DNA of 64,000 bases from a virus, in the IMG/VR virus record IMGVR_UViG_3300035193_000045. The stretch is one strand, 5' to 3'. The notes under the pieces were generated by a model. It was not told the DNA's origin and searched no databases. It was given only the letters and a program-made list of their open reading frames with translations. Below, in pieces: positions 6,735 to 50,570 of this stretch. Every line of letters begins with the position of its first letter. Position 1 is the stretch's first letter. A program made the position numbers and the translations under genes.

Positions 6735-6747
6735 GAAAACCTCCTTC

Positions 6748-7283: not shown

Positions 7284-7307
7284 AGGTATTAAGGTATTTA
7301 AATACCT
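7284..7307. promoter_or_regulatory. AGGTATTAAGGTATTTAAATACCT operator-like motif
   Basis: Contains the perfect 16-bp palindrome AGGTATTTAAATACCT (7292-7307). The first 13 nt are identical to 29805-29817. Confidence 0.55.
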
Positions 7308-7479
7308 ATATAGCGCATTACTTTTATATTCCCCCATAAAATCTATAATAGACACGTGACCAGAAGTCATAGCTCTAATTAAATTGTCATTTATTGTATG
7401 AATGGTACGGAATGTTTTCAATTTTTAGAATGTGCCTTCGTCTATTAAATATATACGAATATTTTCTTTATTTTATATC

Positions 7480-9996: not shown

Positions 9997-10060
9997 TTTT
10001 CGTTCCTTTCTTTTCCTATTATTTGTTATTTGTTATTTTCCCAATAATATCGTACAAAAC

Positions 10061-10079
10061 TAATGATTTAAAGTACTTA
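10061..10079. promoter_or_regulatory. TAATGATTTAAAGTACTTA motif (copy 1)
   Basis: 18/19 identical to 47859-47877; contains the GTACTTA core seen in other intergenic gaps; lies upstream of the gene starting at 9996. Confidence 0.45.
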
Positions 10080-10093
10080 GAATCTATACACTG

Positions 10094-10363
10094 CTAAATA
10101 AAACAGCTAAGCAAAATGGGTTGATCTAACTTGTTCCAAACACCAGTATTGAGCCACATTTTCGATAAAGTGACCCATCGATCAATAGCAAACTGGGCGT
10201 GGATTATTTTATCAGTTGGCAACTGTTGCACCCTTTTAAAAGATTCCAAATGTCTTTTCCTAATATTTTTTGGAAAAAGATGGATAATAGGCAATACATC
10301 CGATAATATAGAGGCTTTCCATTCGTCCATTTCCTTCTCCTTTTGTCGTGTTTCAGCGTTCAT
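10094..10363 (-). CDS. hypothetical protein, first gene after sigma54-like promoter A
   Basis: Track start is 10363. An in-frame ATG at 10330 has AAGGAG 6 nt upstream and is the more likely start (MDEWKAS...). The first 11 codons belong to the leader that is conserved with 47765-47798. Confidence 0.6.
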   Translation of the reverse strand: MNAETRQKEKEMDEWKASILSDVLPIIHLFPKNIRKRHLESFKRVQQLPTDKIIHAQFAIDRWVTLSKMWLNTGVWNKLDQPILLSCFI

Positions 10364-10376
10364 GCCTTTAAGTTAG

Positions 10377-10393
10377 TGCAAACGGTGTGCCAA
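10377..10393 (-). promoter_or_regulatory. sigma54-type -24/-12 promoter element A
   Basis: Minus strand reads TTGGCAC-ACCGT-TTGCA, an exact fit to TGGCAC-N5-TTGCW; predicted start is near 10366. Confidence 0.55.
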
Positions 10394-10548: not shown

Positions 10549-10591
10549 TACCTTTTTGCATATATTCGATACTAATCTATGCAAAAAGGTA
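10549..10591. promoter_or_regulatory. 14-bp perfect inverted repeat in the divergent control region
   Basis: TACCTTTTTGCATA (10549-10562) / TATGCAAAAAGGTA (10578-10591) with a 15-nt spacer; about 150-215 bp upstream of both sigma54-like elements. Confidence 0.5.
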
Positions 10592-10726: not shown

Positions 10727-10743
10727 TTGGCATACTATTCGCA
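10727..10743 (+). promoter_or_regulatory. sigma54-type -24/-12 promoter element C
   Basis: TTGGCAT-ACTAT-TCGCA with GG-N10-GC spacing. Followed by GGCTTAAG, as in element A (AACTTAAAG), and then TAAGGAGG. Confidence 0.4.
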
Positions 10744-17332: not shown

Positions 17333-17568
17333 TACCGCGCTCTCCATGTCCTAGGTTGTTCTCCAAGTAATTCAACAACTTCATCCATGTAAAATCCCCC
17401 TCTTTCAGCAATCCTTTCCGCAGACTGGGTATTATTCCATTTTTTATGATATGCTTCCCATACCTTTAAATGTTCTCCCCAAGAAATAAACCCATCAGGT
17501 ATACGTAGTAATTTACTGCCAATAACCCTTACTATTCGTTCTTCATCCATCAACCTACCTCTTTCCAA
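17332..17568 (-). CDS. hypothetical protein
   Basis: 78 aa; overlaps the stop of the giant gene by 19 nt. Confidence 0.55.
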   Translation of the reverse strand: MERGRLMDEERIVRVIGSKLLRIPDGFISWGEHLKVWEAYHKKWNNTQSAERIAERGGFYMDEVVELLGEQPRTWRAR

Positions 17569-20500
17569 AGTTTTTCAGAAGCACCTACATTCTTTGCCCA
17601 TTGCTCAAATACCATTGGATGGATATAACTAGCCTTTGCAATACTAGGAGTATTGTTCAATATTGTAGCTACTTTTTTACTTGTTTCCAACAACGCTTTA
17701 GCTAATAATCGTTTATCCTTTTTACTATCCCCGGTTAATGGAGGAGGAGTGTCAACTTCTTTTAATAATCTTTCAGCTGATTCCGTAGCCTTAATTGTTC
17801 TAAGGTCTTTTACTTTCATTCCTTTAGGAAGTATATTTTTTCCAATATCTAAAGCATTAGGATTAAATATATTACTATCTTCAGTAGCATTCCTTACATA
17901 ATACTCTAAGGCTTTTAATGTTACAGGATTCTGAACCACTGTAACATTCTTCTTACCTTCTTTACCAATAAAGTTTAAAACAGCCATTTTATTATTTAAA
18001 GCAATGTGATCCTTTTTTAAAGTACTTATACCGTAGTGACCATGCTTTTTAACACTTTCCATACTACCTGGACGTAATCCTGTTTCTGCAATAATAGCTA
18101 ATATAGTATGGCCTTGATGATCAATGCTACCAGGTTTTTCCTTAATTAATTTTTCATTCAATGTATTCACAATTTCTTTTTTCTTACTTCTAAATTTATT
18201 AATTCTATCCCATTTTTTCTTAGCATTTATTTCATGAAATTTTGGAGTATACCCACTTTGAACTTTCCCCTTAGTGTCTTTCCAAGTAATAATTGCTTTA
18301 CTATTTATATCACCAGAAAAATCTACTCTTACATCTGAAGCCGGAATAGTGGCTTGTGGTAACTTATCCACTTTTAATTCTTTTAATTTAGCTTGTACTT
18401 TACCAGGCAATTGAGAACCCGGAGGTTCCCTCTTAATAGGTTTATTTTCTACTTCATCTTTATAAGGTATAGTATGCTCAGCATTTGCCCATTTACCACC
18501 TTTAGGTCCTATGAATAAGGCTTTACGTAAATCAGATTCATTGATCGTAAAACCTTTTCTTATTTTAACTATTCCTGGATCTCCTTCTAGTATTGTAGCG
18601 TTGATACCTTGCTCACGTAAATTATTCATAGCTATTTTAGCATCATCTACGTCTATAGAAAAATTAGTTTGGTAGACATCATGGATATCGTCAGAAGCAA
18701 CTTTTTTAAGTTTTATATTCTTAGCGGAAACATAAGCTAAACTAGATTCCGCTTCTTTTACATTTTGCGGTTTTGATGGCCTTCCCCTACCTTGCTTAAC
18801 AGGTTCCTCTTTTATAGCTTCTCGTTTAAATGTAAGAGGTGGCTCTTTAATAGCCACTCGAGTCATTTTGTTCTTAGAACCAGGAGGTCTCCCTCGTTTC
18901 TTCTTTTCAGGCTCTTGAATAACCATTGAAGGAATAGCAACTCTTTTAATGTTTTTTGATCCAGGAGGTCTTCCACGTTTCTTTTTTTCAGGTTCTTGTT
19001 CAATTACTTCCTTAATTGGTTCCCTTATAACAAAAGCTAGTTTTTGTTCTTCTTGTTTAGGAACCTCTATGGGAATAACAGGAACATCGGGTTTATCTTC
19101 TTTAATAGGTAATTCCTTATTTTCTTCTATAGGCGTTTTACCTCCATGAATTTTATTCAATATATCACTGACGGTTAAGGGCTTATTCATCCATGCAATT
19201 TCTTCCTGCGTCAGCTTCTTTCCCTGATTTACTTTTTTAGATAATTCATATTTCCTTTTAATTATCTCCGTAACTGAAGAATCAAATAAATTATTAGAAG
19301 CGGTAACCCAATAAACATTTACGTTATTCTTTTGTCCAATTCTGTGTGCTCTATCCTCTGCTTGGCGCAAATCAGCAGCAGTCCAAGGTAAATCATTAAA
19401 AATAACTTTATCAGCAGCAGTTAAAGTAGCTCCTACAGCCATTGATTGGCGAGTAGTTATAAATACTCGTTTAGGAGAAACAAAATCACCGTTACCATCT
19501 GTTTTTTGAAACTCTTCCTTTACTGCTTCCCTTTTATCATCACTCATTTGTCCATGATGCAATAAGGAAATATTACCTAATTCTTCATGAATCTTTTTAG
19601 CTGCATCAACTGAATCAGTAAATACTATTATTTTTGAATCAGATGAATCTAATATCTCTTTAGCCAAATCAATAGTAGCAGGAACCTTTCCGATCGCTAC
19701 AGCAGCTTTAATTTTAGCAATTTCACCAATATCTTTATTTGCACCATAATCGGGTAAATTAGGTATGTCTTGTTGAATAATAGAAGTAACTTTTTCAGGT
19801 AAATCTTTTAAAACCTCTTCCTTACTCCTCGCAATATAGAAATCCTTCATATCACGCCAAAGTCCGCCAATAGTAGCAAATTTTATTTGATTTTTAGACG
19901 TAAATTTACCAGGTGCAACAACTTCCAACTGAGTAAATAATTCTTCTTTTTTATTTTTAACCGCCGTTCCAGACAATAGAATATGATGCTTTACTAATGC
20001 CGATACCTTTTGAATTGCTTTTGTCTGTTTAGCTTTAGGATTCTTCATCCTATGCGATTCATCAACCACTACTGTATCAAAACCAGCATCCTTTAAATAA
20101 GGATAAAACTTATTCAAAGATTCATAATTAACAGTTACAAGGTTCTTATCTTTAAGGTTTGGAACTCTATTATTTCTTATATCAGAAGATACTAATTCAG
20201 TTCCTTTAAACTGTCCTGGAAAAAACTTATCCGCTTCTTGTAGCCAAGTACGCCTTACTACTTTCGGAACAACTAAAATTGTTTTCTTATTTCCTTTAGC
20301 TAACCAAGCCAAAGTTTCAAGCGTCTTTCCAAGACCCATAGAATCCCCAATCAAAGCATTTCCATTTGTTTTATCTAAAAAATGAACTGCTTCATTTTGA
20401 TAAGGAAATAATGAATATTTACTGTCTAATAATTTCTGTACTTCAGGAATTGGCTTTTGTAATTCAGCTTGGTATCTCGCTTTTTCATTTTGTGCTTCTT

Positions 20501-22115
20501 TTAAGCCTTCTTCATCTATATATAACTTATAATTAGGCAATTGCTTCTTTATCTGTTGCAATGCTTCTTCTACTAAATTCAGTTCATGCGTTTCTCTAGC
20601 CCAATTATTGTCTTTATTTGCATAAAAAATACCAGACAATCCACCAGTTTTATTGGAAAATAAATCATTAAACTCTGAAGAATAGGTAGACCAAAAAGCA
20701 AATTTATCTTTACCTATTTTCTTAAGAACAATTGCATCTTTAATTCTTCTATCTTTAATGCTTTGCAAAGCTTCATCTACAGTAAGGTCCTTTTCATCTT
20801 TTTCAGATACTTTTTGTTTTCGTTCCCCCTTAATTGGATGAACTTTTATACCTATTTCCCCCATATCCTTCCTATAAGATTCAAAATCAAAATCATCTAA
20901 ATATTGTTCTTTAATAAAGTTCTCGCCGTTACTAAACCATACGTTGTATTTTTTATTAATGTCTCGAAACTTGCTAAAAGTTTCTCTATCAACCCTTCCA
21001 TCTACTGGAAGAGTGAGGCTCCCCCAAGTTTTATTGTAATAAGGTTTAATATCCGCTTTATAACCCTTACCTTCTCTTGTATCTGCTAATCCTAATTTAT
21101 GGTATTCTTCAATGCTATAGGCACCAACTATTTGACGTTTATATTTTTGAAGTAATTGCCGCTTTGCATTTACACCAGTTACAGATCTCCATCTGTCCAT
21201 ATCTACATAACTAAATCCAGTGTCGTCTTTTTCACGAGGATTAATTGCTTGATGACTATATAAAGCTTCACCTATTCTATCTAAAATTTGTTCAGCTTCT
21301 TCGTCACTATACCGTTCTTTAGTTTCTGAATAACTATGTACTTCGTCTTTCCAAGGTATAGTGTGTTCTGGATCAGCCCATTTACCTCCACGTGGACCGA
21401 TAAATGGGCCTTTTTGTGCTTTATTTAAAGCTTCATTGTAGTCTTCAATATAGGAATCTGTATCTATATCATAATGAAAATATGATATACCTTCATCTTC
21501 CCCTTTATTTAATCCATCTACTCTAATACCCGTATTGGGTTTAATTTGAATAGCTCGGTCATCCCAAAGTTCAGCCATATGCAGATCTTTTTCGTATACT
21601 ACCGGTAATTCTTCTCCAATATATTTTTTGCACCATTTCTTTATAGCGGTAATAGATGCTCTAAAATCACTAGAATTTGGATTTGCTCTAGCAGTCATAA
21701 TTTTTACATTTTTATTATTGGCAATCCATTCCTTAACTCTATCAACCATTTTAGGAATTGGCTTACCAATAGAAGCAGAGCCTTTATATTCATGGTATTC
21801 CGCTAATGTCCCATCTAAATCAACGCCAATCCAAGAAGGATTGGAACCAAGACTCTTATTTAATTTTCCCTTATCTAATACTTTACTTATATCCGCAAGC
21901 ATCATATTAGTTTGGTCTTTATAACCTATTTCCCATTGCTTTAATACTTCTAATAGAACTGGATCAGTAAACAATTTATCTTTATCATCTATAGCTTTAA
22001 TTAAACGATTCTTTAAATCAAAATCTACTTCCCCAATGTAATCAGCAATAGATTTTACTAAAGAAACTCTTTTAGAAAAAAGTTCTTCCTTATTTGCTTC
22101 TATTTGTATACGCAT
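17550..22115 (-). CDS. giant polyvalent protein: HAD phosphatase-like + SNF2 helicase + AT-hooks + type IB topoisomerase-like domain
   Basis: HAD: GVDLDGTL / MTAR / LWDDRA. SNF2: GDSMGLGKT, VVVDESHRMKN, LLSGTAVKN, QAEDRAHRIGQ. AT-hooks: two KKKRGRPPGSKN plus GRGRPSKP. Topo IB: LNFIGKEGKKNVTVV, VKDLRTIKAT, LNNTPSIAKASYIHP (Tyr codon 17625-17627). Also two FIGP[RK]GGKWA modules. Confidence 0.85.
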   Translation of the reverse strand: MRIQIEANKEELFSKRVSLVKSIADYIGEVDFDLKNRLIKAIDDKDKLFTDPVLLEVLKQWEIGYKDQTNMMLADISKVLDKGKLNKSLGSNPSWIGVDLDGTLAEYHEYKGSASIGKPIPKMVDRVKEWIANNKNVKIMTARANPNSSDFRASITAIKKWCKKYIGEELPVVYEKDLHMAELWDDRAIQIKPNTGIRVDGLNKGEDEGISYFHYDIDTDSYIEDYNEALNKAQKGPFIGPRGGKWADPEHTIPWKDEVHSYSETKERYSDEEAEQILDRIGEALYSHQAINPREKDDTGFSYVDMDRWRSVTGVNAKRQLLQKYKRQIVGAYSIEEYHKLGLADTREGKGYKADIKPYYNKTWGSLTLPVDGRVDRETFSKFRDINKKYNVWFSNGENFIKEQYLDDFDFESYRKDMGEIGIKVHPIKGERKQKVSEKDEKDLTVDEALQSIKDRRIKDAIVLKKIGKDKFAFWSTYSSEFNDLFSNKTGGLSGIFYANKDNNWARETHELNLVEEALQQIKKQLPNYKLYIDEEGLKEAQNEKARYQAELQKPIPEVQKLLDSKYSLFPYQNEAVHFLDKTNGNALIGDSMGLGKTLETLAWLAKGNKKTILVVPKVVRRTWLQEADKFFPGQFKGTELVSSDIRNNRVPNLKDKNLVTVNYESLNKFYPYLKDAGFDTVVVDESHRMKNPKAKQTKAIQKVSALVKHHILLSGTAVKNKKEELFTQLEVVAPGKFTSKNQIKFATIGGLWRDMKDFYIARSKEEVLKDLPEKVTSIIQQDIPNLPDYGANKDIGEIAKIKAAVAIGKVPATIDLAKEILDSSDSKIIVFTDSVDAAKKIHEELGNISLLHHGQMSDDKREAVKEEFQKTDGNGDFVSPKRVFITTRQSMAVGATLTAADKVIFNDLPWTAADLRQAEDRAHRIGQKNNVNVYWVTASNNLFDSSVTEIIKRKYELSKKVNQGKKLTQEEIAWMNKPLTVSDILNKIHGGKTPIEENKELPIKEDKPDVPVIPIEVPKQEEQKLAFVIREPIKEVIEQEPEKKKRGRPPGSKNIKRVAIPSMVIQEPEKKKRGRPPGSKNKMTRVAIKEPPLTFKREAIKEEPVKQGRGRPSKPQNVKEAESSLAYVSAKNIKLKKVASDDIHDVYQTNFSIDVDDAKIAMNNLREQGINATILEGDPGIVKIRKGFTINESDLRKALFIGPKGGKWANAEHTIPYKDEVENKPIKREPPGSQLPGKVQAKLKELKVDKLPQATIPASDVRVDFSGDINSKAIITWKDTKGKVQSGYTPKFHEINAKKKWDRINKFRSKKKEIVNTLNEKLIKEKPGSIDHQGHTILAIIAETGLRPGSMESVKKHGHYGISTLKKDHIALNNKMAVLNFIGKEGKKNVTVVQNPVTLKALEYYVRNATEDSNIFNPNALDIGKNILPKGMKVKDLRTIKATESAERLLKEVDTPPPLTGDSKKDKRLLAKALLETSKKVATILNNTPSIAKASYIHPMVFEQWAKNVGASEKLWKEVG

Positions 22116-24996: not shown

Positions 24997-27297
24997 TTAC
25001 ATACGGCCGCAATTAGGACAAACTGTTATTGCTTTACTAAAAGTATTACTGCAATGTCTACACTTATTAACAGTACTTAAAGGAATACCAGATAAAGGAC
25101 GATTCATTAAATGGGCTTTGTAAAAAGATTCGTCTTGCATAGAACGAACAGCCATTTCATCAGATGTCATTCGTACATTCTCAATTGACTTCTGCACAGG
25201 CTCATCTGGTTCAATGTAAACCATATCATTTTTCATTAATTGAGTTTTTCGTAAAGCAACTTCTCTAGCCATATAGTCATGCGCCTGAGTAGAAATGTTA
25301 AGGCTTTTTCTTGCAGTGTTCTCAATAGGCTTCTTATGATCTTTCATATTTTTCTCGTCTACTTCATCATCTTCAGATAACTTCTTTACAGACGGCTTTG
25401 CTACACCTCTATCAAGGGTAGCGCTACCATTACCAGGAATACCAGAAGATTTTCCTTTACCATCTAATGATTGATCTCCTTGTTCTTTACCTTTCCCAAT
25501 AACAGGTAAAGACTCATCCTCAATTGTTGATTTCAAGAAAGTCTCTAAGATTTCAGTTTCCCTCATTCCTTTATTTAAACTTTTAACAAAATCACTCCAT
25601 GAATCTGAAATAGGTTTATGGGTAACAGCGTCATGCTTTACGTCTCTTAATAAATCCCCTTCTTTAAATGACCAATATTCTAAAGTAACATTTTTATCTC
25701 TACCTGGACTACTATGCTTAAATACTCCGCCAAGTTTATGTAAATCATCCATAGAATTTAATTTATTACGATTTAGTTTATGTAATAAATTTCTAATGGG
25801 TTTATAAGCATCTTCATAAATATATCGATAACCCCCTCCCGGTTTAGGTATTCGTTGTTTGTATTTACCACCTATAGGATTACCTTTTTCTAAATCAATT
25901 TCTTCATTTCCTAGTGATTTATTATACGTAGACGAATATTTCTGTTTTAAATATGTTAAAGCCGTCTGCTTATTTTCCGAATTCAAATCTTTACCAGAAT
26001 TTTTAACAGCCATTCCAGCAAGTTTGTTAAAAGCTTTATTCCTATCGTACGTCCCTAATTTTCGTAATTGCACAAGCCATTTCTTTCCGTCAGCTGACCC
26101 TAATGCCCTGTCAATATAACTAGTAATACCTTTTCTATCTTTCTTCCCACCAATTTCATATTTACCATTTTCATAAAAATAAACATAACCTCCTCCCTTT
26201 TTAGGAACTTTTCTAATATACTTTCCGCCTCGGTCTGCTTTAATTAATTCATCATCCGTAATACCTATACAAAACATTGCTTTTTCCATTTCCTTACCTC
26301 CTAAATATTTTCTAGCCCTATTCTGTAAGGCTACTTTTTGTTGTTCCGATAAACCACACTTAGACTGAGGAATGCGGGCAATTGCATTCCGTGTATGTGC
26401 TAAATCAATTTTACCGTCCATTCCTCTATAAGGAAAATGACGCAATGAACGAGGTATTGTCTTACCACTTTCATCTTTCTTTCCCCCTGATTCAATGTAA
26501 AGAAAAGCACTATCCGGTAAATCATTCATATGCGCATTTGACCAAACTGCCTTTTGTAAATTATTATGAAACATATATTTACCAATTGCTTTATTAAAAT
26601 TTTTAGGAGAAATCACCATAGTTATTTTAGACCCATTTTTATTTAATCCATATAATCCATTACTAATTAAATTATTCCAAGAAATATTATCATATTCCAG
26701 TTTATAATTAGAGATTAAAGAATTTGCCACATTAATAAAATCTTTATTACCAGAACTTTGTATAGAATCATAAGACATTCCTGTAATTTTTTTCCATATA
26801 GATAACGATACTTTAGAATTTAGTTCCCTATATCCTTTATCATCAAAATATTTCAACAAAGTGTCCGTTTGCGAACCACTTAAATCTTTAAGAGATTTTT
26901 TAACCCAAACCTCTTTTATAGAACCAAGATGACTTTGTTTGGGAACCTTTTGATTAAATCCTAAATAACTATCACTAATTGCATTAATGGGGTTACCTCT
27001 GTCATCTAATACAAACCTAATATTATATTTCTGGGCAATGTCGATAGGGTCAAAATATTTATTATCTCTGGCATAGTACCTATCATCATCAGTAGTTTCA
27101 ACATAAGCGTATTTTCCATCCCATTTAGATAAACTAAATCCCTTTTTATCCTTAATGGTTGTATCATTAGGCAATTTGTCTAATATAATTTTAGTAGAAA
27201 TACTTTCATTACCTTCTTTCCAAGGTATAGTGTGTTCTGGATCAGCCCATTTACCTCCACGTGGACCGATAAATGGGCCTTTTTGTGCTTTATTCAT
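24997..27297 (-). CDS. large polyvalent/virion-associated protein
   Basis: 766 aa. N-terminal QKGPFIGPRGGKWADPEHTIPWK module, two GGKYxxRxPKxGGGYxYxYE modules, LRHFPY...HTRNAIARIPQ motif and a C-terminal CRHC...CPNC zinc ribbon. Immediately upstream of the portal gene. Confidence 0.6.
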   Translation of the reverse strand: MNKAQKGPFIGPRGGKWADPEHTIPWKEGNESISTKIILDKLPNDTTIKDKKGFSLSKWDGKYAYVETTDDDRYYARDNKYFDPIDIAQKYNIRFVLDDRGNPINAISDSYLGFNQKVPKQSHLGSIKEVWVKKSLKDLSGSQTDTLLKYFDDKGYRELNSKVSLSIWKKITGMSYDSIQSSGNKDFINVANSLISNYKLEYDNISWNNLISNGLYGLNKNGSKITMVISPKNFNKAIGKYMFHNNLQKAVWSNAHMNDLPDSAFLYIESGGKKDESGKTIPRSLRHFPYRGMDGKIDLAHTRNAIARIPQSKCGLSEQQKVALQNRARKYLGGKEMEKAMFCIGITDDELIKADRGGKYIRKVPKKGGGYVYFYENGKYEIGGKKDRKGITSYIDRALGSADGKKWLVQLRKLGTYDRNKAFNKLAGMAVKNSGKDLNSENKQTALTYLKQKYSSTYNKSLGNEEIDLEKGNPIGGKYKQRIPKPGGGYRYIYEDAYKPIRNLLHKLNRNKLNSMDDLHKLGGVFKHSSPGRDKNVTLEYWSFKEGDLLRDVKHDAVTHKPISDSWSDFVKSLNKGMRETEILETFLKSTIEDESLPVIGKGKEQGDQSLDGKGKSSGIPGNGSATLDRGVAKPSVKKLSEDDEVDEKNMKDHKKPIENTARKSLNISTQAHDYMAREVALRKTQLMKNDMVYIEPDEPVQKSIENVRMTSDEMAVRSMQDESFYKAHLMNRPLSGIPLSTVNKCRHCSNTFSKAITVCPNCGRM

Positions 27298-28948: not shown

Positions 28949-29149
28949 TTAAATACATTTAATTATACTATGATCTTTACACCACTGCACTCCAACACCA
29001 TTTTGCATTTTTATACTATGATCTTTACACCACCGCACACCGACCCCATTTTGCGTTTTTATACTTGTAAACGCATCTTTGTTGTCCAATGTGATCGTTA
29101 TGCGATCACATTCACGATCAATCAAAAAAGTGACATTTTTAATCAACAT
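28949..29149 (-). CDS. hypothetical protein with internal 16-aa tandem repeat
   Basis: Begins MLIKNVT, identical to the XRE gene start. Contains NGVGVRWCKDHSIKMQ / NGVGVQWCKDHSIIKC. Confidence 0.5.
   Translation of the reverse strand: MLIKNVTFLIDRECDRITITLDNKDAFTSIKTQNGVGVRWCKDHSIKMQNGVGVQWCKDHSIIKCI
28965..29060. repeat. 48-bp tandem direct repeat, 2 copies (43/48 identical)
   Basis: 28965-29012 and 29013-29060, followed by a 5-nt start of a third unit. Confidence 0.9.
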
Positions 29150-29220
29150 TTTATATTTCCTTTCATTTAGGTATTAAAGTACTTAATTATACCTTAATAC
29201 TATTCCTCTAAATATTTTAC
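29129..29220 (-). repeat. 92-bp promoter/5' cassette, copy A
   Basis: 89/92 identical to 29765-29856. Spans the first 7 codons, the RBS and the AGGTATTAAAGTACTTAATTATACCT motif (29169-29194). Confidence 0.9.
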
Positions 29221-29224
29221 ATAT

Positions 29225-29785
29225 CTAGTCTACCCACCCACAAGTACAAATAATAGAAATAGGAACATCTATAATGATAGGAGAGGATGTGTCCAATTTA
29301 CAATTAACCCATTTACCATTATTAGGATCATTCTTATTTGACCAATAATCTGCATTCTCACATATATAATCAGCTATTATTAAAACCTCTTGAATATCGT
29401 CTTCTTCATCTATATTTACGTAATGCCTATGTGCTTTCTCTAAAAGCTCAATATCTTTTTTTGTAGGATTTTTTATAAGACACAAAGTAGGTGAATTTTC
29501 AGAAGTAACCCAAACAAGTAAAACATTATAATCTGCTAAGGTAAACGCTCCTAGGCTTTCTGCTGCACGTATATTTAATTCCTCAACAGGAATTTGAAGA
29601 AATCTCGCAATGCTTTCATTTTGAGTATCACTAAATGGAAATTGTTTAGCTCGCTCAATATCTGATACAGATGTAACTGACACTTTCAATGTTCTTGCAA
29701 GATCTCCAAGAGTTTTACCTTTTTTCTTTCTTTCCTCACGAAGGTATTCTCCATACAATCTTTTAGTGACATTTTTAATCAACAT
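29225..29785 (-). CDS. XRE-family HTH transcriptional regulator with unknown C-terminal domain
   Basis: KKGKTLGDLARTLKVSVTSVSDIERAKQFP is a typical Cro/CI-type HTH; 186 aa. Confidence 0.75.
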   Translation of the reverse strand: MLIKNVTKRLYGEYLREERKKKGKTLGDLARTLKVSVTSVSDIERAKQFPFSDTQNESIARFLQIPVEELNIRAAESLGAFTLADYNVLLVWVTSENSPTLCLIKNPTKKDIELLEKAHRHYVNIDEEDDIQEVLIIADYICENADYWSNKNDPNNGKWVNCKLDTSSPIIIDVPISIICTCGWVD

Positions 29786-29856
29786 TTTCTATTTCCTTTC
29801 TTTTAGGTATTAAGGTACTTAATTATACCTTAATACTATTCCTCTAAATATTTTAC
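29765..29856 (-). repeat. 92-bp promoter/5' cassette, copy B
   Basis: See copy A. Contains TATAAT on the minus strand within AAGGTATAATTAAGTACCTT. Confidence 0.9.
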
Positions 29857-37005: not shown

Positions 37006-37190
37006 TATGTACCTCCAAAATACTTTATAAAGCCTTCTATTAAAGAATACAAGGCAATACCTATACCAAAAAATACCGTAAAGTAAAACAATACTTGTTG
37101 TAGTTTATTAGGTAATCGGACTGTAACTATTAAAAATACTAAGAAAAAAGTCCATACTATATACAATATTTTCACTTTAAAAAATATCAT
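37005..37190 (-). CDS. small two-helix membrane protein
   Basis: ILYIVWTFFLVFLIVTV and VLFYFTVFFGIGIALYSLI hydrophobic segments. Confidence 0.5.
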   Translation of the reverse strand: MIFFKVKILYIVWTFFLVFLIVTVRLPNKLQQVLFYFTVFFGIGIALYSLIEGFIKYFGGT

Positions 37191-38890: not shown

Positions 38891-38921
38891 ATACCTAAAT
38901 GTATTTAGGTATTTAAGTACC
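38891..38921. promoter_or_regulatory. ATACCTAAAT-GT-ATTTAGGTAT palindrome plus AGGTATTTAAGTACC
   Basis: 10-bp arms with a 2-nt spacer (38891-38912), overlapping a GTAC-type half-site (38907-38921), in the 114-nt intergenic gap. Confidence 0.55.
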
Positions 38922-38944
38922 AAATTTATACGTTTTTTCTGGAA

Positions 38945-42623: not shown

Positions 42624-42649
42624 TATTTAGGTATTTAAATACCTAAATA
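42624..42649. promoter_or_regulatory. perfect 26-bp palindrome TATTTAGGTATTTAAATACCTAAATA
   Basis: Self-complementary; 16 nt upstream of the ATG at 42608; abutted on the minus strand by TATAAT (42654-42649). Confidence 0.6.
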
Positions 42650-44149: not shown

Positions 44150-44446
44150 CTATTTTCTTTCCGCTCTATACCTCGGAACAACATGTCGACCAATCTCTGC
44201 TATAGCGCGCTCTTTACGACGTTGAATGGTATGCCTTCTTTGCCTTGATATTTTACGAACAACTACATAACCTATTGCTTTTTTATCTTTCTTTTTTCGC
44301 TGCTCCTCCTGAAAGGCAAAATACTTTTTTGCAACTCTAGCAGTATTCGCCTTTCTATTAATCATAATTCCACAGTTCTCCAATTCTCGAATCATCTCCA
44401 TCCTAGTCATTTTCTTTTCTTCTTGTTTTCGTTGATACCTATCCAT
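44150..44446 (-). CDS. highly basic hypothetical protein
   Basis: 98 aa, Arg/Lys-rich. Confidence 0.5.
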   Translation of the reverse strand: MDRYQRKQEEKKMTRMEMIRELENCGIMINRKANTARVAKKYFAFQEEQRKKKDKKAIGYVVVRKISRQRRHTIQRRKERAIAEIGRHVVPRYRAERK

Positions 44447-44639
44447 TGATGTTGTTCCTTTCCATATGTTCTTTGATTATGTAAATCGCATCAGAGATAC
44501 CACTAGCTACTCCCTGTGCATGAGCTTTATGCGGCACCGCCCAACTATAAATACCCTCCTCGCGCTCCAACCATTCTTTTTTACAGTGTTCTAATTCTGT
44601 AATAATTTCCATAATAATTTGTTGTGTCTTTTTACTCAT
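44439..44639 (-). CDS. hypothetical protein
   Basis: 66 aa, 8-nt overlaps at both ends. Confidence 0.5.
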   Translation of the reverse strand: MSKKTQQIIMEIITELEHCKKEWLEREEGIYSWAVPHKAHAQGVASGISDAIYIIKEHMERNNING

Positions 44640-45384
44640 TCATAATTCCTCTACTTTCTTTTAATGAATAATCACTAGCACCCGAAGGATGGTAGTAACT
44701 ATTTTCAATGGTAGCTAGGGCACTAGCATATTCGCTTTCACTATGCCATTGGCCTGATAAACCTAGACGTTTCTGTTGTCTTTTGGTTAATTTACGAAAA
44801 CCACGCACCTTGGCATGGTTATATAAAATCCGAGACGCGGCACGATTAATACTAGCCAATGTGCACTTATTTTCAGAGATGTACTCCTCCAATTGATACG
44901 TAGCACTTTTTATATCGTCATTATCTAAAAAACGATAGTAGCGATCAAAATGCCAACGTACAATTCCCTCAATATGATCAGGATTTTTTAACTCAAAATC
45001 TTTAAAACGAAAATAAGCGTACGACGTATTACCGATATGTACTATAGTTGTCTCCCCCTCAATTGTAAAGTACACATACGCACACTGAGTAGGTGCTTGA
45101 TCTGGGGGTACAAATCGAATGCATAGGTGGTCTCTTTTTTGATGATCGTATTTCCCTATTTTTTTAGATACTTCGACAACCATCAAATGATTATTTGGAA
45201 TTGTTGCGTTGTATAACCTATCCACAATATACAAATCAATTGCGCTAGTAGGCACTCCTTTCAATGCCCATCGCTGTGCTTTTTGCGTCTTTGAAATCCA
45301 ATGCCACTCCTCTAGTGGCTCTAGATTTTCTGTATCTAAATCTAAACAACGAAATATTTGTTTAACTTCAATGGGCTTTTTCAT
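44632..45384 (-). CDS. hypothetical protein
   Basis: 250 aa; no motif recognised. Confidence 0.6.
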   Translation of the reverse strand: MKKPIEVKQIFRCLDLDTENLEPLEEWHWISKTQKAQRWALKGVPTSAIDLYIVDRLYNATIPNNHLMVVEVSKKIGKYDHQKRDHLCIRFVPPDQAPTQCAYVYFTIEGETTIVHIGNTSYAYFRFKDFELKNPDHIEGIVRWHFDRYYRFLDNDDIKSATYQLEEYISENKCTLASINRAASRILYNHAKVRGFRKLTKRQQKRLGLSGQWHSESEYASALATIENSYYHPSGASDYSLKESRGIMNE

Positions 45385-45385
45385 C

Positions 45386-45706
45386 TTATTTTTTTCCTTT
45401 TCTACTCTCCCCTAATCTTCGACCTCGTTCCTTCAACGAGGCTATTTGCTCCTCAGTCATCTCTCGCTTACAATCCTCCCACGTAACTTTGCCTTTATGT
45501 TTAGGATTAAATTGACGCCACCAAAAATTAGGCTCCAATTTTCGGTAAGGCTGATACTGATAAAACGGACATTTTCTTGACCCACAATCTACCTTTCCGT
45601 CCGTCCAATGTCCCATACATTCCCAACACAAGGCTTCTCCGCATTCTTTCCTCGAAGGAGGTGTTTCGTAAATTACCTCTACTGATTTAATTGGTGTCCG
45701 TTTCAT
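45386..45706 (-). CDS. Cys-rich hypothetical protein (N-terminal KRTPIK tag)
   Basis: MKRTPIKSV...CWECMGHWTDGKVDCGSRKCPFYQY. Confidence 0.55.
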   Translation of the reverse strand: MKRTPIKSVEVIYETPPSRKECGEALCWECMGHWTDGKVDCGSRKCPFYQYQPYRKLEPNFWWRQFNPKHKGKVTWEDCKREMTEEQIASLKERGRRLGESRKGKK

Positions 45707-45720
45707 ACTGTTTATCCTTT

Positions 45721-45987
45721 CTATTTTATAGGAATTCTTCTAATAGATTTCCTAATCATTTCTATTGGCCTACTAAAATTCCATCTATAACAAAGCCATT
45801 CATCAAACAAATTATTCTGATCAACGGTCCATCGACCATTTTGTACTTGTCCAGTTTGAGCGCACCATACAATGCGCTCATCCTTTATCCACCGATTATA
45901 AGACTCATTATATAACTGTAAAATTAATTCAGGCGCTAAATTAACCAATTTTGCATATAAGACTAATCGAATATGGTATTCAGTCAT
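45721..45987 (-). CDS. hypothetical protein (C-terminal RRIPIK)
   Basis: 88 aa ending ...RKSIRRIPIK. Confidence 0.5.
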   Translation of the reverse strand: MTEYHIRLVLYAKLVNLAPELILQLYNESYNRWIKDERIVWCAQTGQVQNGRWTVDQNNLFDEWLCYRWNFSRPIEMIRKSIRRIPIK

Positions 45988-46492
45988 GACAACTCACATC
46001 CGAACAAAATTCTATTTTGTCCGCTTCAGTAAAAGTATTTCCGGTATTAATTGCATCCATAACCGCTCCAGGAGATACTATGTCATCCATACCAATATAA
46101 TGGCCTAATTCATGCAATACCGTAAGTGTAAATAATTCATCCGATAATAAATATCTAAATAGCCATACATCCCCATTTTGGTATGCGTGACCTAATAAAC
46201 CCGCCCATTCATCCATATGTGGATCGTCGTAAAAACATACAACAAAATCCCTTCCCCATTCTGGATCAGACCCAACAGTAAGCGCTTTTTTATGATCTAC
46301 TTTATCAGTACCCTCTATACTGATAAAGACTTTTCCGCTTAATTTTTTTGTCCATGAGTTCAAGTAATTAATAGATTGCTTAATAACTATTTGATCTGCA
46401 TCAGAGCATGTATCATCGATCCACAATTCATAAGGCGTTGCTTCGCAACCTACGCAATAACACTCTAATAGTATAAGAATCCCAATTTTCAT
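45980..46492 (-). CDS. secreted metzincin-like zinc metalloprotease
   Basis: HELGHYIGMDD (HExxHxxGxxD). Start refined to MKIGILILLECYCVGC (hydrophobic signal-like N-terminus), which avoids overlap with the upstream gene; the track ORF extends to 46537. Confidence 0.6.
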   Translation of the reverse strand: MKIGILILLECYCVGCEATPYELWIDDTCSDADQIVIKQSINYLNSWTKKLSGKVFISIEGTDKVDHKKALTVGSDPEWGRDFVVCFYDDPHMDEWAGLLGHAYQNGDVWLFRYLLSDELFTLTVLHELGHYIGMDDIVSPGAVMDAINTGNTFTEADKIEFCSDVSCHD

Positions 46493-46503
46493 TTTAGTAT
46501 CCC

Positions 46504-47031
46504 TTATAATGCGCTTTGCGGACAAGATGCCCCACAAGGCTTTCCATCTATGTGTACGCCTCCTCCTCGGGTATAGTATCTTCCACGCGGAAAGGATTCT
46601 AGCGCATCATGATCTGACTCGTTCACTCTTTCTGTGTCAGTCATTCTTAGATGTGTAATAGCATCATTAATGATTTCTATTGGTATATTCATCACGGACG
46701 CAATATTTCGAATCTCTATTACATCTAGTGCGGAAATATTCCAATTTCCGTCACTTAATACGTAATGAGATCCAGAACTAGAACGTGCTTGAGGCCCCAC
46801 GTAATCTTTTACGAGATCACATGCTACGTAGAACATGCGATCGTCGTCTATATTTAAATATACAAACCATCCCCCCTGTTCACGAGTTACAGAGTGACCA
46901 AATTGGTCAATCCATTTTTCGTCAATTTTTTCAGGAAGAATATCTCCCCATGTCGAATCTATTATGCAATCTTCGATGAAGATTGGCAGGGGACCAATTT
47001 TAATTTCGTGGGAGTTAACTTCTTTACACAT
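46504..47031 (-). CDS. hypothetical protein (GC-richer island)
   Basis: 175 aa; GAGGAG 5 nt upstream of the ATG at 47031. Confidence 0.55.
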   Translation of the reverse strand: MCKEVNSHEIKIGPLPIFIEDCIIDSTWGDILPEKIDEKWIDQFGHSVTREQGGWFVYLNIDDDRMFYVACDLVKDYVGPQARSSSGSHYVLSDGNWNISALDVIEIRNIASVMNIPIEIINDAITHLRMTDTERVNESDHDALESFPRGRYYTRGGGVHIDGKPCGASCPQSAL

Positions 47032-47474
47032 GACATCTCCTCTTTGAGTTGTTTATTCTCGTATGCTATGTTTGATAGCAAACATTCCCGCTCATATGAG
47101 AGGCGTACCGAATTACGAGCTAGTTGTTCTTCTTTATACGCAGCATGCCAATATGAACGAGCTTGGCTTAATTCTTTTTCAGCACGATCTTTACAGACCA
47201 TATACTCTCGTCTTACCCGAGAGTTTTCCTTTTTAAGTAATCTAATTTCATCTTCATTTTGTTGCTTGTTGTGAGATAATCGCGACAACGTCTCAGATAG
47301 TTTTTCTACATTCTCCTGAGAGGTCAAGAGATTGTCGTTAATGCTTTTAATGTCAATCACAAGATCATCTACGATTGACATTGCATCCTCAAGATGTTTT
47401 GATGCTTTATTTGTGGCGCCCAACTCAAGAAATTCTATTGCTAGAGCAAGAGAATTATGTAATTTGTTAATCAT
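46962..47474 (-). CDS. coiled-coil hypothetical protein
   Basis: 170 aa, heptad-rich; 70-nt overlap with the downstream gene. Confidence 0.55.
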   Translation of the reverse strand: MINKLHNSLALAIEFLELGATNKASKHLEDAMSIVDDLVIDIKSINDNLLTSQENVEKLSETLSRLSHNKQQNEDEIRLLKKENSRVRREYMVCKDRAEKELSQARSYWHAAYKEEQLARNSVRLSYERECLLSNIAYENKQLKEEMSCVKKLTPTKLKLVPCQSSSKIA

Positions 47475-47543
47475 CTCTATTTCCTTTACCTTCCGGCACC
47501 CTTCACCGCCCGCCTCAAGGGAGACAAGCGGGATGTGGGTCAG

Positions 47544-47798
47544 CTAGTCCGCCCACCCATCAAGCTCTCGCTGGATAGCCCCCTCGGACATCCCACCCAT
47601 GGTGAGAGCTAGTTCAGTTGCGTACCGCGCGGTGCAGGCATCATTGGTCATCCCGTCAACCGCTTCGAGACTGCCGACGTACCATGTGCCCTCGCAATAA
47701 TTCATCGCGCCGCCAAGTATCCGAAAATCTTCCAGTGCCTTGTCAAAGTCTTTGTACGCTTTCATTTTCCTTCTCCTTTGTTGTGTTTCAGTGTTCAT
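47544..47798 (-). CDS. hypothetical protein in a GC-rich island, behind sigma54-like promoter B
   Basis: The likely start is ATG 47765 (MKAYKDF; AAGGAG upstream). Hand count gives 37/60 G+C at 47521-47580. Confidence 0.55.
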   Translation of the reverse strand: MNTETQQRRRKMKAYKDFDKALEDFRILGGAMNYCEGTWYVGSLEAVDGMTNDACTARYATELALTMGGMSEGAIQRELDGWAD

Positions 47799-47811
47799 AC
47801 CCTTATGTTAG

Positions 47812-47828
47812 TGCAAACGGGATACCAA
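47812..47828 (-). promoter_or_regulatory. sigma54-type -24/-12 promoter element B
   Basis: Minus strand reads TTGGTAT-CCCGT-TTGCA. The downstream leader of about 50 nt is roughly 85% identical to that of element A. Confidence 0.5.
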
Positions 47829-47858
47829 AACAAGTAAATAAGGTTAAAAAATAAAAAC

Positions 47859-47911
47859 TAATGATTTAAGGTACTTAAAAATAGTATTTAGGTAAGTATA
47901 TACCTAAATAC
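47859..47911. promoter_or_regulatory. TAATGATTTAAGGTACTTA motif (copy 2) plus 11-bp-arm inverted repeat
   Basis: 47859-47877 matches 10061-10079. GTATTTAGGTA (47884-47894) / TACCTAAATAC (47901-47911) with a 6-nt spacer. Confidence 0.5.
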
Positions 47912-48025
47912 ACTACTTTTTACATAGTTAAGGTATGCAAAAAATACACAACTTATAAAAAAGTAATGATTTAGATATTTTACTAAATAGGTAAAAAGGT
48001 AATAGGTTATGAAAAATTTGCGTAC

Positions 48026-48472
48026 CTACCAAATATAGCCAACCCCTTTATAAATATAATCCTCTAATCTAAGATCTTCTTCGGAATCATCCCCTTGTCG
48101 CAGACATTTTCCACAATAATATTGAGACTTATATAGGTATAACGTAGTTTTTACATTACAATTATAGCAATAATCTATTTTATTCTTAGGTTTATATACT
48201 GGAGTCATTATTCCATTATTAATAAACTGACAACCTTTTTGCGTCAGAACATAATGATGACTTTTATTTGATTTTTCTGATTTTTTTAAACGGTCTAGCA
48301 ATCCTTCATTTACGAGTATACGTAGCCAATTACCCATTTGTTTTTTAGGTATACCTAATATGACAGATGCTTTATGATATAAAAAAGGAGTAGGTATAGG
48401 TTTATCTCTTACTTCTCTATAGATATATTTAAGGATATATAATTTTACACTTTTTTCTTTTACATTATTCAT
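48026..48472 (-). CDS. winged-helix-like DNA-binding protein with C-terminal zinc ribbon
   Basis: IPKKQMGNWLRILVNEGLLDRLKK (wHTH-like) and CYNC...CGKC. Directly downstream of the terminase; a role in packaging or regulation is a guess. Confidence 0.4.
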   Translation of the reverse strand: MNNVKEKSVKLYILKYIYREVRDKPIPTPFLYHKASVILGIPKKQMGNWLRILVNEGLLDRLKKSEKSNKSHHYVLTQKGCQFINNGIMTPVYKPKNKIDYCYNCNVKTTLYLYKSQYYCGKCLRQGDDSEEDLRLEDYIYKGVGYIW

Positions 48473-48642
48473 TTATTCCGCCGTTTTCTAAAAATGAATA
48501 ATTGACGATCTTCTTCAATACAATTAATAACCTTTCTCCTATTATGGTCACAACACAACACTTCCTTATCATCCTTTATAAACTTATACCTACATAAACC
48601 ATCTAATTCCCGTTTTTTACAATCGCATTTCTCATCAAACAT
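48469..48642 (-). CDS. small Cys-rich protein (57 aa, not in the ORF track)
   Basis: Hand translation: MFDEKCDCKKRELDGLCRYKFIKDDKEVLCCDHNRRKVINCIEEDRQLFIFRKRRNK. TAATG overlap with the terminase stop and ATGA overlap with the next start; GGAGG at 48649-48653 (rc). Confidence 0.5.
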   Translation of the reverse strand: MFDEKCDCKKRELDGLCRYKFIKDDKEVLCCDHNRRKVINCIEEDRQLFIFRKRRNK

Positions 48643-50570
48643 TAAAAACCTCCTATTCCAAAATTATATTGATCATCCAATCGCTTCATTTCTTGTAAAG
48701 CAATAATGCTATGTATCTCAGAACATCCATCAATACCTTCTCCAGCTATTTCTTGTAAAATATCTCTGTATATAGGATAATCGTATTCATTGCAAATAAT
48801 ACCATTTCCTTTCTTAATATTATTAATAACATATTTTTTCTTTTCTTCTAAGTCTGTATTAGATATCTTAGAATCAGTTACTATGGTATCATCAACTAAA
48901 TTATGTCTACGAGGTTCAATCTCAACATCATCTCCAAAACTAAAGCCAAAAGCACCTCGTTTAATTGCTTGATTACACAACCAAGTGGACATTACGGTGT
49001 CATCATGCTGACCTACTGATTGAACTTTACCGTCTAAAAAAGTCATTGATCTAAATTCATCAATCAATATATCCGTTAATTCAATACTATGGGCATCTCC
49101 TCTAGGAATTCTAAATTTACCATTTTCAAACAATACACGTAATTCAGGAACACCAAATTCTAATGAATTTTTATTCTGTGCAGTAGTTACAAATTTATAA
49201 ATAGGTAAATCAGTTTCTCTTATTAATTCATCTCCAAAAATTCGTTGCATTTGATTTGCTTCTAAAGTCATTAATCCGGGATCATATATACGTCCCATTC
49301 TATTAATTTCAGATTGCTGTTCTCTATAAGGTAATCCTTTCTTTCGAAACATATCAATCAACCACCTATTCCCAAAGTTATCTAAACCTAAAATAATAAT
49401 AACTGTATAATCTGCCTGAACAGTAGACGAAATGGCAAAGTCAACCCCGGCATAGGGAACAATCCCTTTATCTAACCAAAATTGTAAAGGCATACCTAAT
49501 TTTAAATTAAATTGTTCAACTGGACTACCTTTAAATAGACTAATTGGGAATAAACTCATTTCGTCGCTAATCGGTGAAACTAAAAATTCCCTACCATATC
49601 TAATAAGTCCTATTTCGTCCTTTTTAGTAAGTAAACGCTCCAATGGATATCTATCTGACCAAAGAACATTATTAATAATTTCTCCTGGATTAGATTCAGC
49701 TGGATAATGTTTAAATATATATTGTTTATTTTTTCGTAATTCTCCATACAAATCATTTATATGAAATGGAGTACCTACTACAATTATTTGCCCTGAAGGA
49801 GTGACCATGTTTGAAATAGCATTGAAGAAATAATCATTTTGTTTATTTCTAACTGTCTCACTCCAAGCAGTTTCGTCATTAAGCCCGTCATCTACTACAA
49901 TCCATCTAGGATGAGCACCTCGAACACGAACACCAAAACCCCTAGCATATATTCTATGTCCATTTGCTAATGTAATTTTTTTAGAACCCCATGAAGATTT
50001 CTTTTTAGGAACTAAGTATTGTAATTGAGGATTAGTCTCAATCTCAATCTTAATCATTTCTAAAAATTCAGATGCCTGAGATTGTGTAGCTGAAAAAATA
50101 AACCCGCATTCCCCAGGATATTTAATTGCTTGTCTAATTGGGTAAGCAAAATCAAAAAAATAAGATTTGCCATGATCTCGCGCGCTCAATATACAAATTC
50201 GATTATTATACGCTATTAACTCATCCCATTCAAGGTGATGGTCTCCAATTAAAAATTTACCGTTATAAGGAGGTTCAATAGGTCCAGTTAAAATAGAATC
50301 TGCAAAATAAGCAACAGATTCAAGGATCATTTGTTTATCTAATTCATTTAATCTTATCTCACATTCAGGATTAATATCTTCTAAATCAAAATTAGATTCT
50401 TCCTCAGTTAAATCTTCTTCAACTATTTCATAATCAAAATTAGATTCAAGTGAGGCTAATAGTAATTCATATGAATTAGCAATAGTGGTATTTCTATCTA
50501 TAAAGGGAATAGCTGTCCGTTTAAAAGGACTAATTAAAGGAGTAGAATTTATTATAGGAATACGCTGCAT
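48642..50570 (-). CDS. terL: terminase large subunit
   Basis: Walker A-like ILSARDHGKSYF, Walker B HPRWIVVDDGLND, and a C-terminal RNase H-like nuclease region GVDFAISSTVQADYTVIIILG. 642 aa. Confidence 0.85.
   Translation of the reverse strand: MQRIPIINSTPLISPFKRTAIPFIDRNTTIANSYELLLASLESNFDYEIVEEDLTEEESNFDLEDINPECEIRLNELDKQMILESVAYFADSILTGPIEPPYNGKFLIGDHHLEWDELIAYNNRICILSARDHGKSYFFDFAYPIRQAIKYPGECGFIFSATQSQASEFLEMIKIEIETNPQLQYLVPKKKSSWGSKKITLANGHRIYARGFGVRVRGAHPRWIVVDDGLNDETAWSETVRNKQNDYFFNAISNMVTPSGQIIVVGTPFHINDLYGELRKNKQYIFKHYPAESNPGEIINNVLWSDRYPLERLLTKKDEIGLIRYGREFLVSPISDEMSLFPISLFKGSPVEQFNLKLGMPLQFWLDKGIVPYAGVDFAISSTVQADYTVIIILGLDNFGNRWLIDMFRKKGLPYREQQSEINRMGRIYDPGLMTLEANQMQRIFGDELIRETDLPIYKFVTTAQNKNSLEFGVPELRVLFENGKFRIPRGDAHSIELTDILIDEFRSMTFLDGKVQSVGQHDDTVMSTWLCNQAIKRGAFGFSFGDDVEIEPRRHNLVDDTIVTDSKISNTDLEEKKKYVINNIKKGNGIICNEYDYPIYRDILQEIAGEGIDGCSEIHSIIALQEMKRLDDQYNFGIGGF

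Follow-up and report, generated by a model that had tools for sequence, protein, structure and literature searches.

Two islands of ORFan genes in the viral record IMGVR_UViG_3300035193_000045 (IMG/VR; the 64,000-nt stretch analysed is called the window) are each preceded on the minus strand by a copy of the same ~67-nt unit. This unit runs from a -24/-12-type promoter motif through a short leader to the start codon of the first island gene, and its two copies are termed head B (locus B, 47-48 kb) and head A (locus A, 8-11 kb). With a probability of roughly 0.6, our comparisons suggest that each head is a sigma-54-type promoter fused to a generic cassette 5' untranslated region (5'UTR), serving both as the expression head and as a recombination patch of a mobile gene-cassette array. 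Promoters of the sigma-54 (RpoN) class follow the consensus TGGCAC-N5-TTGCW, with GG at -24 and GC at -12, and need an AAA+ enhancer-binding activator upstream; they are silent without an activated enhancer-binding protein. A first-pass annotation had pointed to such an element at 47828-47812 of the minus strand, and the sequence there does read TTGGTATCCCGTTTGCA, followed by a Shine-Dalgarno (SD)-led ATG at 47765-47763.

A global alignment of head B (47829-47763) with head A (10394-10328) gave 58 identical positions in 68 columns (85%) and two 1-nt indels, in agreement with the ~85% identity first claimed for the two loci. The blastn E-value was 5e-17 for the pair and 5e-11 against the whole window, and no third place in the window matched the head unit by blastn. 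The identity extended well beyond the SD site, from the -24 box to the ATG, and ended at the start codon. The genes that follow are unrelated, as had been stated: the 73-aa first-gene protein of island B and the 78-aa one of island A showed no similarity to each other. Both heads fit the GG/GC spacing of 10 nt, copy A with the full consensus TGGCAC-N5-TTGCA (TGGCACACCGTTTGCA) and copy B with TGGTAT-N5-TTGCA (TGGTATCCCGTTTGCA). The exact pattern TGGYAY-N5-TTGCW matched twice in the window, both times at the heads, whereas shuffled sequences gave a mean of 0.13 matches and only one shuffle in 100 reached two. The box TACGCAAA-N-TTTTCATAA, which had been noticed to recur upstream, is identical at 17 of 18 positions between 48024-48007 (B) and 10463-10446 (A) on the minus strand; it does not keep its place relative to the -24 box, lying ~196 nt from it at B but 71 nt from it at A. 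A GG-N10-GC match, TGGTATAGGTATTGCC, was also seen at 37053-37068 (minus), inside a 600-nt stretch without long open reading frames (ORFs). Elsewhere in this genome, a further case of duplicated regulatory heads was observed: a 92-nt segment with a promoter-like region, a leader and the first codons (MLIKNV...) lies at 29129-29220 and 29765-29856, 636 nt apart at 97% identity, and a 48-nt tandem duplication (28963-29058) adjoins it.

Heads were also found in other phages. A close relative is represented by one 102.6-kb IMG/VR contig that bears both loci (L120, L123) and has a backbone 90-95% identical to that of the window, while locus B is covered by the metagenome and ENA/JGI contigs L137, L144 and L148. 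At locus B, L120 and L144 keep TTTGGTATACCGTTTGCA. A search with the head pattern TTTGGNANNCCGTTTGCAYTA returned only the two heads of the close relative as true matches, the other seven being due to chance. The 14-mer CCGTTTGCACTAAC, proposed in the first-pass annotation as a probe for other genomes, led no further in IMG/VR: among the 119 stretches fetched from the matches listed, the best local score was 25 against the 76-nt query, which corresponds to chance.

GC-richer phages were reached through the island genes and a repeat that separates them. The 201-aa protein encoded in island A has only four homologous clusters in 5.8 billion proteins, and one of these sits on contigs L145-L147 of a phage of 48% GC with an ERF / DUF3799 backbone. 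An IMG/VR search for the junction repeat described below added two or three more phages, namely L151 (50% GC) and L153 and L164 (57-58% GC), the latter two on different contigs of 41 and 53 kb with 6.9 kb of identical sequence; the pattern TTGCACTGNTTAGGGGYATGA yielded nothing beyond L151, L153 and L164. Two island-B genes of the window recur in L151 at 80-86% amino-acid identity and the 201-aa gene recurs in L145, whereas no backbone gene common to the window and L145 or L151 was found in the 11-14 kb sampled from each phage. Over these samples, L145 and L151 (GC 0.48-0.50, ERF / DUF3799 backbones) share only island genes and the head with the window. Their arrays, and that of L153, begin with GGCATGAGAATTGCA (L145), GGCATGGCAATTGCA (L151) and GGCATACGCATTGCA (L153), and in each case a G run comes next, then a leader with homology to those of the window. 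A second, divergent element lies ~300 nt away in L145 (GGCACACAGATTGCA) and L151 (GGCACGGGCATTGCA), as at locus A of the window, and divergent pairs ~300-335 nt apart thus occur in three phages. The presence of heads at the same two loci in close relatives, and before related arrays in phages of 48-58% GC with unrelated backbones, supports the earlier proposal that the unit is a portable expression module.

Downstream of the divergent element, L145 (5290-5960, minus) and L151 (4815-5490, plus) carry a GC-rich stretch of ~650-700 nt without a clean ORF. It contains the conserved blocks GGGGAGAGCTGCGGCG, TCACCGGGnGGCGCGCG and GCGTCnTGGGTTCGAATCCC, the last of which resembles a tRNA T-arm. ARAGORN detected no tRNA or tmRNA in this stretch, Rfam gave no match and the fold z-scores were -1.7 and -0.3; the stretch may correspond to a non-coding RNA not described before.

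The junction repeat is a sequence of ~115 nt found between the island genes of the GC-richer phages. It comprises a stop codon, a 13-bp GC hairpin, CGCCGAAAGGCAA, two small hairpins and an SD-ATG. The hairpin, CCACyCCGCCCGCC-loop-GGCGGGCGGCGATGG, follows each gene, lacks a T-run and shows two compensatory pairs. No Rfam match was obtained for the repeat, and its 3' pattern, GCGCGAYAGGCGCAN{1,2}GGAG, retrieved only chance coding matches and the known loci; L224 was checked as an additional locus and rejected. The repeat may serve in recombination, in the stabilisation or processing of mRNA, or in both.

The promoter motif was compared across 15 sites from nine lineages, anchored on GG (window A-, B- and A+, where A+ is a divergent plus-strand element at locus A; L123; L120; L144; L137; two sites each in L148, L145 and L151; L153). 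GG was observed at 13 of the 15 sites, whereas A at position 4 and GCA were invariant, and the dinucleotide preceding GCA was TT in 13 cases and TC in two. The retained pattern is therefore GG-Y-A-Y-N5-T(T/C)GCA, and no indel was ever observed between GG and GC. The 5-nt spacer varied freely (ACCGT, CCCGT, CTTGT, GAGAA, GGCAA, ACGCA, ACTAT, ACAGA, GGGCA) and the flanks differed too. A fixed GG-GC spacing combined with a freely changing spacer and flanks is the signature expected of sigma-54 promoters, and the constancy of this pattern alone among homologous heads favours the sigma-54-like reading offered in the first-pass annotation. The heads also have in common a G run at the expected +1 position. 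Counting 12 nt past the -12 C, transcription from head B would start near G 47801, and that from head A near G 10366.

Several observations weigh against the overall reading. The nine lineages are few and partly related, and there are just two or three heads per genome, between which recombination is deduced from comparisons. The -24 GG is lost in L137 (TA; TTTTATAT...) and in copy 2 of L148 (AG; TTTAGTAT...), and an intact second head stands close by in L148 alone. Neither a signature of a bacterial enhancer-binding protein (GAFTGA or the corresponding Walker A) nor an RpoN box was seen when the window and related loci were translated in six frames, and no Sigma54_activat domain was detected in window proteins of at least 210 aa. 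The candidate upstream activator inverted repeats are not conserved between lineages, one arm being lost in L123. Finally, a scan of genome contigs with GGGCGGCGATGGRCGCCGAA produced 47 matches, all attributed to chance, and no host clue; all were in high-GC genomes except L175, whose match was inspected and proved to be a chance coding match.

The failure to find an activator gene in the window and related loci would also agree with the head being the promoter or operator of another factor, with an incidental GG/GC match, an alternative that we consider unlikely. The factor could be the sigma-70-family protein of the phage, a 148-aa winged-helix protein or a phage RNA polymerase encoded outside the window. 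The most invariant block of the locus-B copies is CCGTTTGCACTAAC(A)TAA and not GG, as L137 and copy 2 of L148 illustrate. The sigma-70-family gene (5573-6358; regions 2 and 4) and a receiver-only gene (6339-6782), both on the minus strand, lie downstream of island A, and this shared orientation means that head A might control the phage's own sigma factor. In every relative, the gene just upstream of head B encodes the 148-aa protein (48026-48472, minus; 61-95% identity), a candidate local regulator that matches winged-helix proteins weakly and bears a CxxC...CxxC motif at its C-terminus. The conserved blocks, however, are 10 nt apart, which is a misfit to the 16-18 nt between the -35 and -10 boxes of the sigma-70 family, and no -10-like hexamer was present at the right distance. 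A sigma-70 scan found no match at either head, and a sigma-70 promoter was rejected there on this result and on the -24/-12-type motif. Moreover, GG-N10-GC is kept in phages in which no backbone protein in common with the window was found in the sampled 11-14 kb. A phage polymerase fits no better, since a search of the large window proteins gave no RNA polymerase domain and three copies in 64 kb are unlike the promoters of phage RNA polymerases.

Base composition sets the islands apart from the rest of the phage. GC content is ~0.30 phage-wide, and it rises directly downstream of the heads to 0.41-0.45 at 8-10 kb and 0.38-0.40 at 44-48 kb, with an overall island range of 0.37-0.56. Apart from a weak zincin-like motif and, at the edge of the island, a DnaJ-like Zn-finger protein, the island proteins had no Pfam or PHROG match. 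In these ORFan regions, the breakpoints of gene replacements and indels between close relatives coincide with the heads. Window A, L123-A, window B/L120, L137, L144 and L148 have different genes in first place behind the head; the first gene of island B is 51% identical to its L120 counterpart, whereas the flanking genes are 86-95% identical. Island B of L120 contains 2.36 kb without counterpart in the window, and the 201-aa gene, which lies in island A of the window, is found in island B of four relatives (L120, L137, L144 and L148). In L148, two tandem heads stand 123 nt apart with a 13-codon gene remnant between them. Downstream of the first gene of island A, the window has a segment (10056-10082) of the type found upstream of promoter B, followed at ~10016-10045 by the 3' remnant of an L123-type gene, which together point to a replacement event or its scar. 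As the head and the junction repeat are the sole conserved sequence among unrelated ORFans, they could also serve as a homology patch for recombination.

Such coincidence of heads and breakpoints raises the question of whether the repeat has any expression function, or is a recombination scar or hitch-hiking flank in islands that are read through or transcribed from other promoters. The loss of GG from two copies whose downstream genes are retained, and the resemblance of the leader to the promoter-less junction repeat, would also fit this explanation, which we nevertheless regard as quite improbable. For a neutral scar, it is unexpected that GG-YAY-N5-T(T/C)GCA is kept at fixed spacing over genomes of 30-58% GC while spacer and flanks have diverged. 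Likewise, within the locus-A intergenic region, which is 75% identical overall between the window and L123, the A- element is identical at 17 of 17 positions and the A+ element at 15 of 16. At ~55 nt upstream of head B, a palindrome followed by a T-run was scored as a terminator (none was seen at head A); head B thus appears to start its own transcription unit, and the hairpin speaks against simple read-through.

The leader is the part of the head that links the promoter motif to the start codon, and the first-pass annotation took its conservation to imply shared post-initiation control. This claim was not supported. RNAalifold predicted no base pair in a leader consensus structure, single-sequence folding energies (-0.7 to -4.3 kcal/mol) were no better than those of shuffles, and no Rfam match was obtained; a structured leader or riboswitch was rejected on these grounds. 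The leader looks instead like an open, purine-rich ribosome-loading region. Two leader types were distinguished, type 1 (ATGAACRCTGAAACACRACAAAAGGAG) in window A, window B and head 1 of L148, and type 2 (ATGAGCTGCGAGGCAACAACAAAGGAG) in L120, L137 and head 2 of L148. Window copy B is therefore a mosaic of a B-type promoter and a type-1 (A-type) leader, whereas its closest relatives have the other type at locus B. Because the two types swap and copy B is mosaic, the identity of leaders A and B is better explained by cassette replacement or recombination than by a regulatory constraint acting on both. Judged by eye, the leader resembles the GGCGATGGRCGCCGAAAGGCAA part of the junction repeat, in the 3' half of the latter, at ~17 of 23 positions, and so looks like a generic 5'UTR of the cassettes.

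A regulatory upstream peptide (MN-T/A-ET...) was considered together with cis-regulatory RNA, since most heads have an ATG ~33 nt before the SD-led ATG and the leader is 85% identical between A and B. This upstream ATG is in frame with the gene in three of the five copies first examined (both window copies and L120), but in L137 and L123 it is out of frame or opens a mini-ORF of its own, and two of 11 island heads (L123-A and L145) lack it. The pair of A/B indels shifts the frame, so that the nucleotides are kept and the peptide is not. With leader types that swap freely and no structure predicted, regulation through the leader is very improbable. The upstream ATG was also rejected as the true N-terminus, its frame not being conserved and some copies lacking it or having a mini-ORF; that of leader B (47798-47796) is probably not used.

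If the heads are sigma-54 promoters, host RNA polymerase with sigma-54 would bind GG (-24) and GC (-12), and an ATP-dependent enhancer-binding activator, not found in the window and presumably a host protein, would open the complex. Transcription would begin at the conserved G run ~12 nt downstream, and the leader with its strong SD site would bring ribosomes to whichever gene follows. By acting as a homology patch, the head would further allow genes to be replaced, to pass from one island to the other and to be exchanged between phages that are unrelated. Such an exchange may account for the 85% identity of heads A and B; in it, copy B would have combined a B-type promoter, an A-type leader and a divergent gene allele. 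The features of both loci and the copies of the junction repeat are collected in Table 1.

Table 1. Positions of the head elements, neighbouring features and junction repeats (window coordinates unless a contig is named).
Feature	Position	Strand	Remarks
Copy B -24/-12 element TTGGTATCCCGTTTGCA	47812-47828	minus	GG 47826-47825, GC 47814-47813; identical or near-identical in L120, L144, L134
Copy B leader	47766-47801	minus	Purine-rich, unstructured; SD AAAGGAG 47779-47773
First cassette gene, island B	47544-47765	minus	73-aa ORFan; GC 0.56, GC at third codon positions 0.64
Perfect 11-bp palindrome GTATTTAGGTA-N6-TACCTAAATAC with T-run	47884-47911		Terminator-like on both strands; one of the 5-copy palindrome family
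Segment TTTTTAAGTACCTTAAATCATTAGTTT just upstream of promoter B	47854-47880	minus	Homologous to 10056-10082 (27 nt, 92.6%)
Inverted repeat TTTTTGCATA-N7-TATGTAAAAA	47917-47943		~105 nt upstream of -24 box; candidate regulator/enhancer site; kept in L120, L144, L148
Box TACGCAAATTTTTCATAA	48007-48024	minus	Directly 3' of stop codon of 148-aa winged-helix gene; variants in L120, L144, L148, L123
Rest of island B	44150-47474	minus	GC raised to 0.37-0.42; ORFans, among them a zincin-like 185-aa protein; different gene content in relatives
Copy A -24/-12 element TTGGCACACCGTTTGCA	10377-10393	minus	Conserved in L123 (see text)
Copy A leader	10331-10366	minus	SD AAAAGGAG; ATG 10330-10328
First cassette gene, island A	10094-10330	minus	78-aa ORFan; a different 97-aa gene here in L123
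Copy of B-upstream segment, CTAAGTACTTTAAATCATTAGTTTT	10056-10082	minus	Here downstream of first gene of island A
Divergent sigma-54-like element TGGCATACTATTCGCA (A+)	10728-10743	plus	One mismatch off the motif; 21 nt before ATG 10764 of sole plus-strand gene block
Perfect 14-nt inverted repeat TACCTTTTTGCATA-N15-TATGCAAAAAGGTA	10549-10591		Midway between divergent promoters; one arm lost in L123
Box TACGCAAAGTTTTCATAA	10446-10463	minus	Partner of 48007-48024
Two-gene block, island A	8245-9166	minus	201 aa (GC 0.49) and 107 aa; absent from locus A in L123
Junction repeat copies	L145: 6520-6645, 6965-7085, 8270-8335		
Junction repeat copies	L151: 1330-1500, 1880-2040, 3700-3850, 4020-4190	minus	
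Junction repeat copies	L148: 1965-2075, 2500-2600; L137: 2320-2440		
Junction repeat, decayed copy	47475-47545		

Further repeats were noted in the window. The palindrome before head B belongs to an AT-rich family, TATTTAGGTAnnTAnnTACCTAAATA, with five intergenic copies (7287-7312, 29164-29189, 38902-38927, 42624-42649 and 47885-47910). Several of these lie only 10-20 nt before an SD-ATG and the one at 47885 is followed by a T-run; the palindromes may act as operators or terminators or form RNA hairpins. Of the 13 TTTGCRTA half-sites in the window, six are located in the two intergenic regions.

The window is part of a tailed phage of ~100 kb with nearly all genes on the minus strand, and its genes carry strong SD sites. 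The large terminase subunit (TerL) is encoded at 48642-50570, and the other genes identified include those for the portal, an SU10-type capsid protein, a family-A DNA polymerase, RecA, SbcCD and RuvC. The closest GenBank phages infect Bacteroides, with a TerL identity of just 35%, and 8 kb of the window had no megablast match among GenBank phages. An unusual fusion for a phage was observed in the 1521-aa protein encoded at 17550-22115 (minus), which joins an SNF2-family helicase (residues ~570-930) to a eukaryotic-type topoisomerase IB core (residues ~1293-1515). An 80-nt coding block occurs twice within the gene of this protein and four times in all (14033-14112, 18457-18536, 21346-21425 and 27215-27294), internally in the 794-aa and 1521-aa genes and at the 5' end of a 766-aa gene. 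The copies at 21346 and 27215 are 100% identical and the others ~67%, which suggests a shared module or recent gene conversion.

Mobile regulatory cassettes have been described in the hyperplastic regions of T4-type phages under the name of promoter-early stem-loops (PeSLs; Arbiol et al. 2010, PMC2839356; Comeau et al. 2014, PMC4122927), and the PeSL cassette is the closest described system to the heads. Both systems place a short conserved regulatory cassette with a promoter among non-essential ORFans, a terminator-like stem-loop being nearby at head B here; in both, the breakpoints of indels and replacements between close relatives fall at the cassettes, which are the only homology between otherwise unrelated genes. 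The two differ in promoter class, the -24/-12 type of the heads standing against the strong sigma-70-like early promoter of PeSLs, and in number, with two or three copies per genome (three sites in 64 kb; two heads matched by pattern in the 102-kb contig of the relative) against dozens. The conserved unit here also reaches through the 5'UTR to the start codon, and the phage, with its SU10-type capsid protein, is not T4-like. Neither mini-circles nor recombination events were observed with the heads, between which exchange is deduced from sequence comparison.

The heads agree with canonical sigma-54 promoters in consensus, in the rigid GG-GC spacing, in a G-rich start ~12 nt downstream, in AT-rich upstream regions of 100-200 nt with inverted repeats and in the occurrence of divergent pairs. 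They differ in being carried on mobile cassettes of a virulent-looking phage, in that no activator gene or conserved enhancer was found in the window and related loci, and in two copies that lack GG. Literature searches retrieved no report of sigma-54-type promoters serving phage operons; the promoters known from phages nearly always belong to the sigma-70 type or are served by a polymerase or sigma factor of the phage itself.

Morons of lambdoid prophages are autonomous promoter-gene-terminator units inserted between phage genes. The islands resemble them in having accessory genes of deviant GC with their own promoter and, at head B, an adjacent terminator-like hairpin, but here one promoter stands before an array of several genes that are exchanged one by one, and the head itself is repeated and shared between phages. 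In an integron, one promoter heads an array of promoter-less cassettes separated by hairpin-forming attC sites. This arrangement is matched by the single promoter at the array head, by the hairpin-forming repeat between genes of the GC-richer relatives and by the gene order shuffled between genomes. The junction repeats differ in including the SD and start-codon context, and no integrase was found: the window proteins of at least 210 aa contained no integrase or tyrosine recombinase domain, and the called genes of L144-L148 included no integrase. Together with ERF in L145, the presence of RecA, SbcCD and RuvC in this phage suggests that the exchange is homology-driven rather than site-specific. 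The start-associated sequences (SAS) and extended SAS (ESAS) of Cluster K mycobacteriophages form a conserved motif just before the start codons of certain genes, in some cases together with an upstream inverted repeat. They share with the heads the position directly before start codons, in a different sequence and in different phages, and we know of no link between SAS and a sigma-54-type promoter or gene shuffling.

A wider reading, which we put forward tentatively and as rather doubtful, is that a family of sigma-54-dependent, activator-gated heads travels with ORFan arrays between unrelated phages of 30-58% GC, wiring accessory genes, possibly for host takeover or counter-defence, to an enhancer-binding protein of the host that responds to a physiological or infection-stress signal. 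The sigma factor of locus A and the divergent, early-looking block would be wired likewise, and the heads and ~115-nt repeats would be substrates of an undescribed cassette-exchange system. If the heads are real sigma-54 promoters, the expression of the accessory islands, and at locus A maybe that of the downstream phage sigma factor too, would be tied to the signalling state of the host, and a phage would thereby have a novel means of reading its host. Whatever the sigma factor, this compact regulatory unit marks points of gene swapping within the genome and between unrelated phages, which extends the PeSL principle to a different phage group and promoter class. The head also offers a sequence handle with which exchangeable ORFan genes can be sought in metagenomes.

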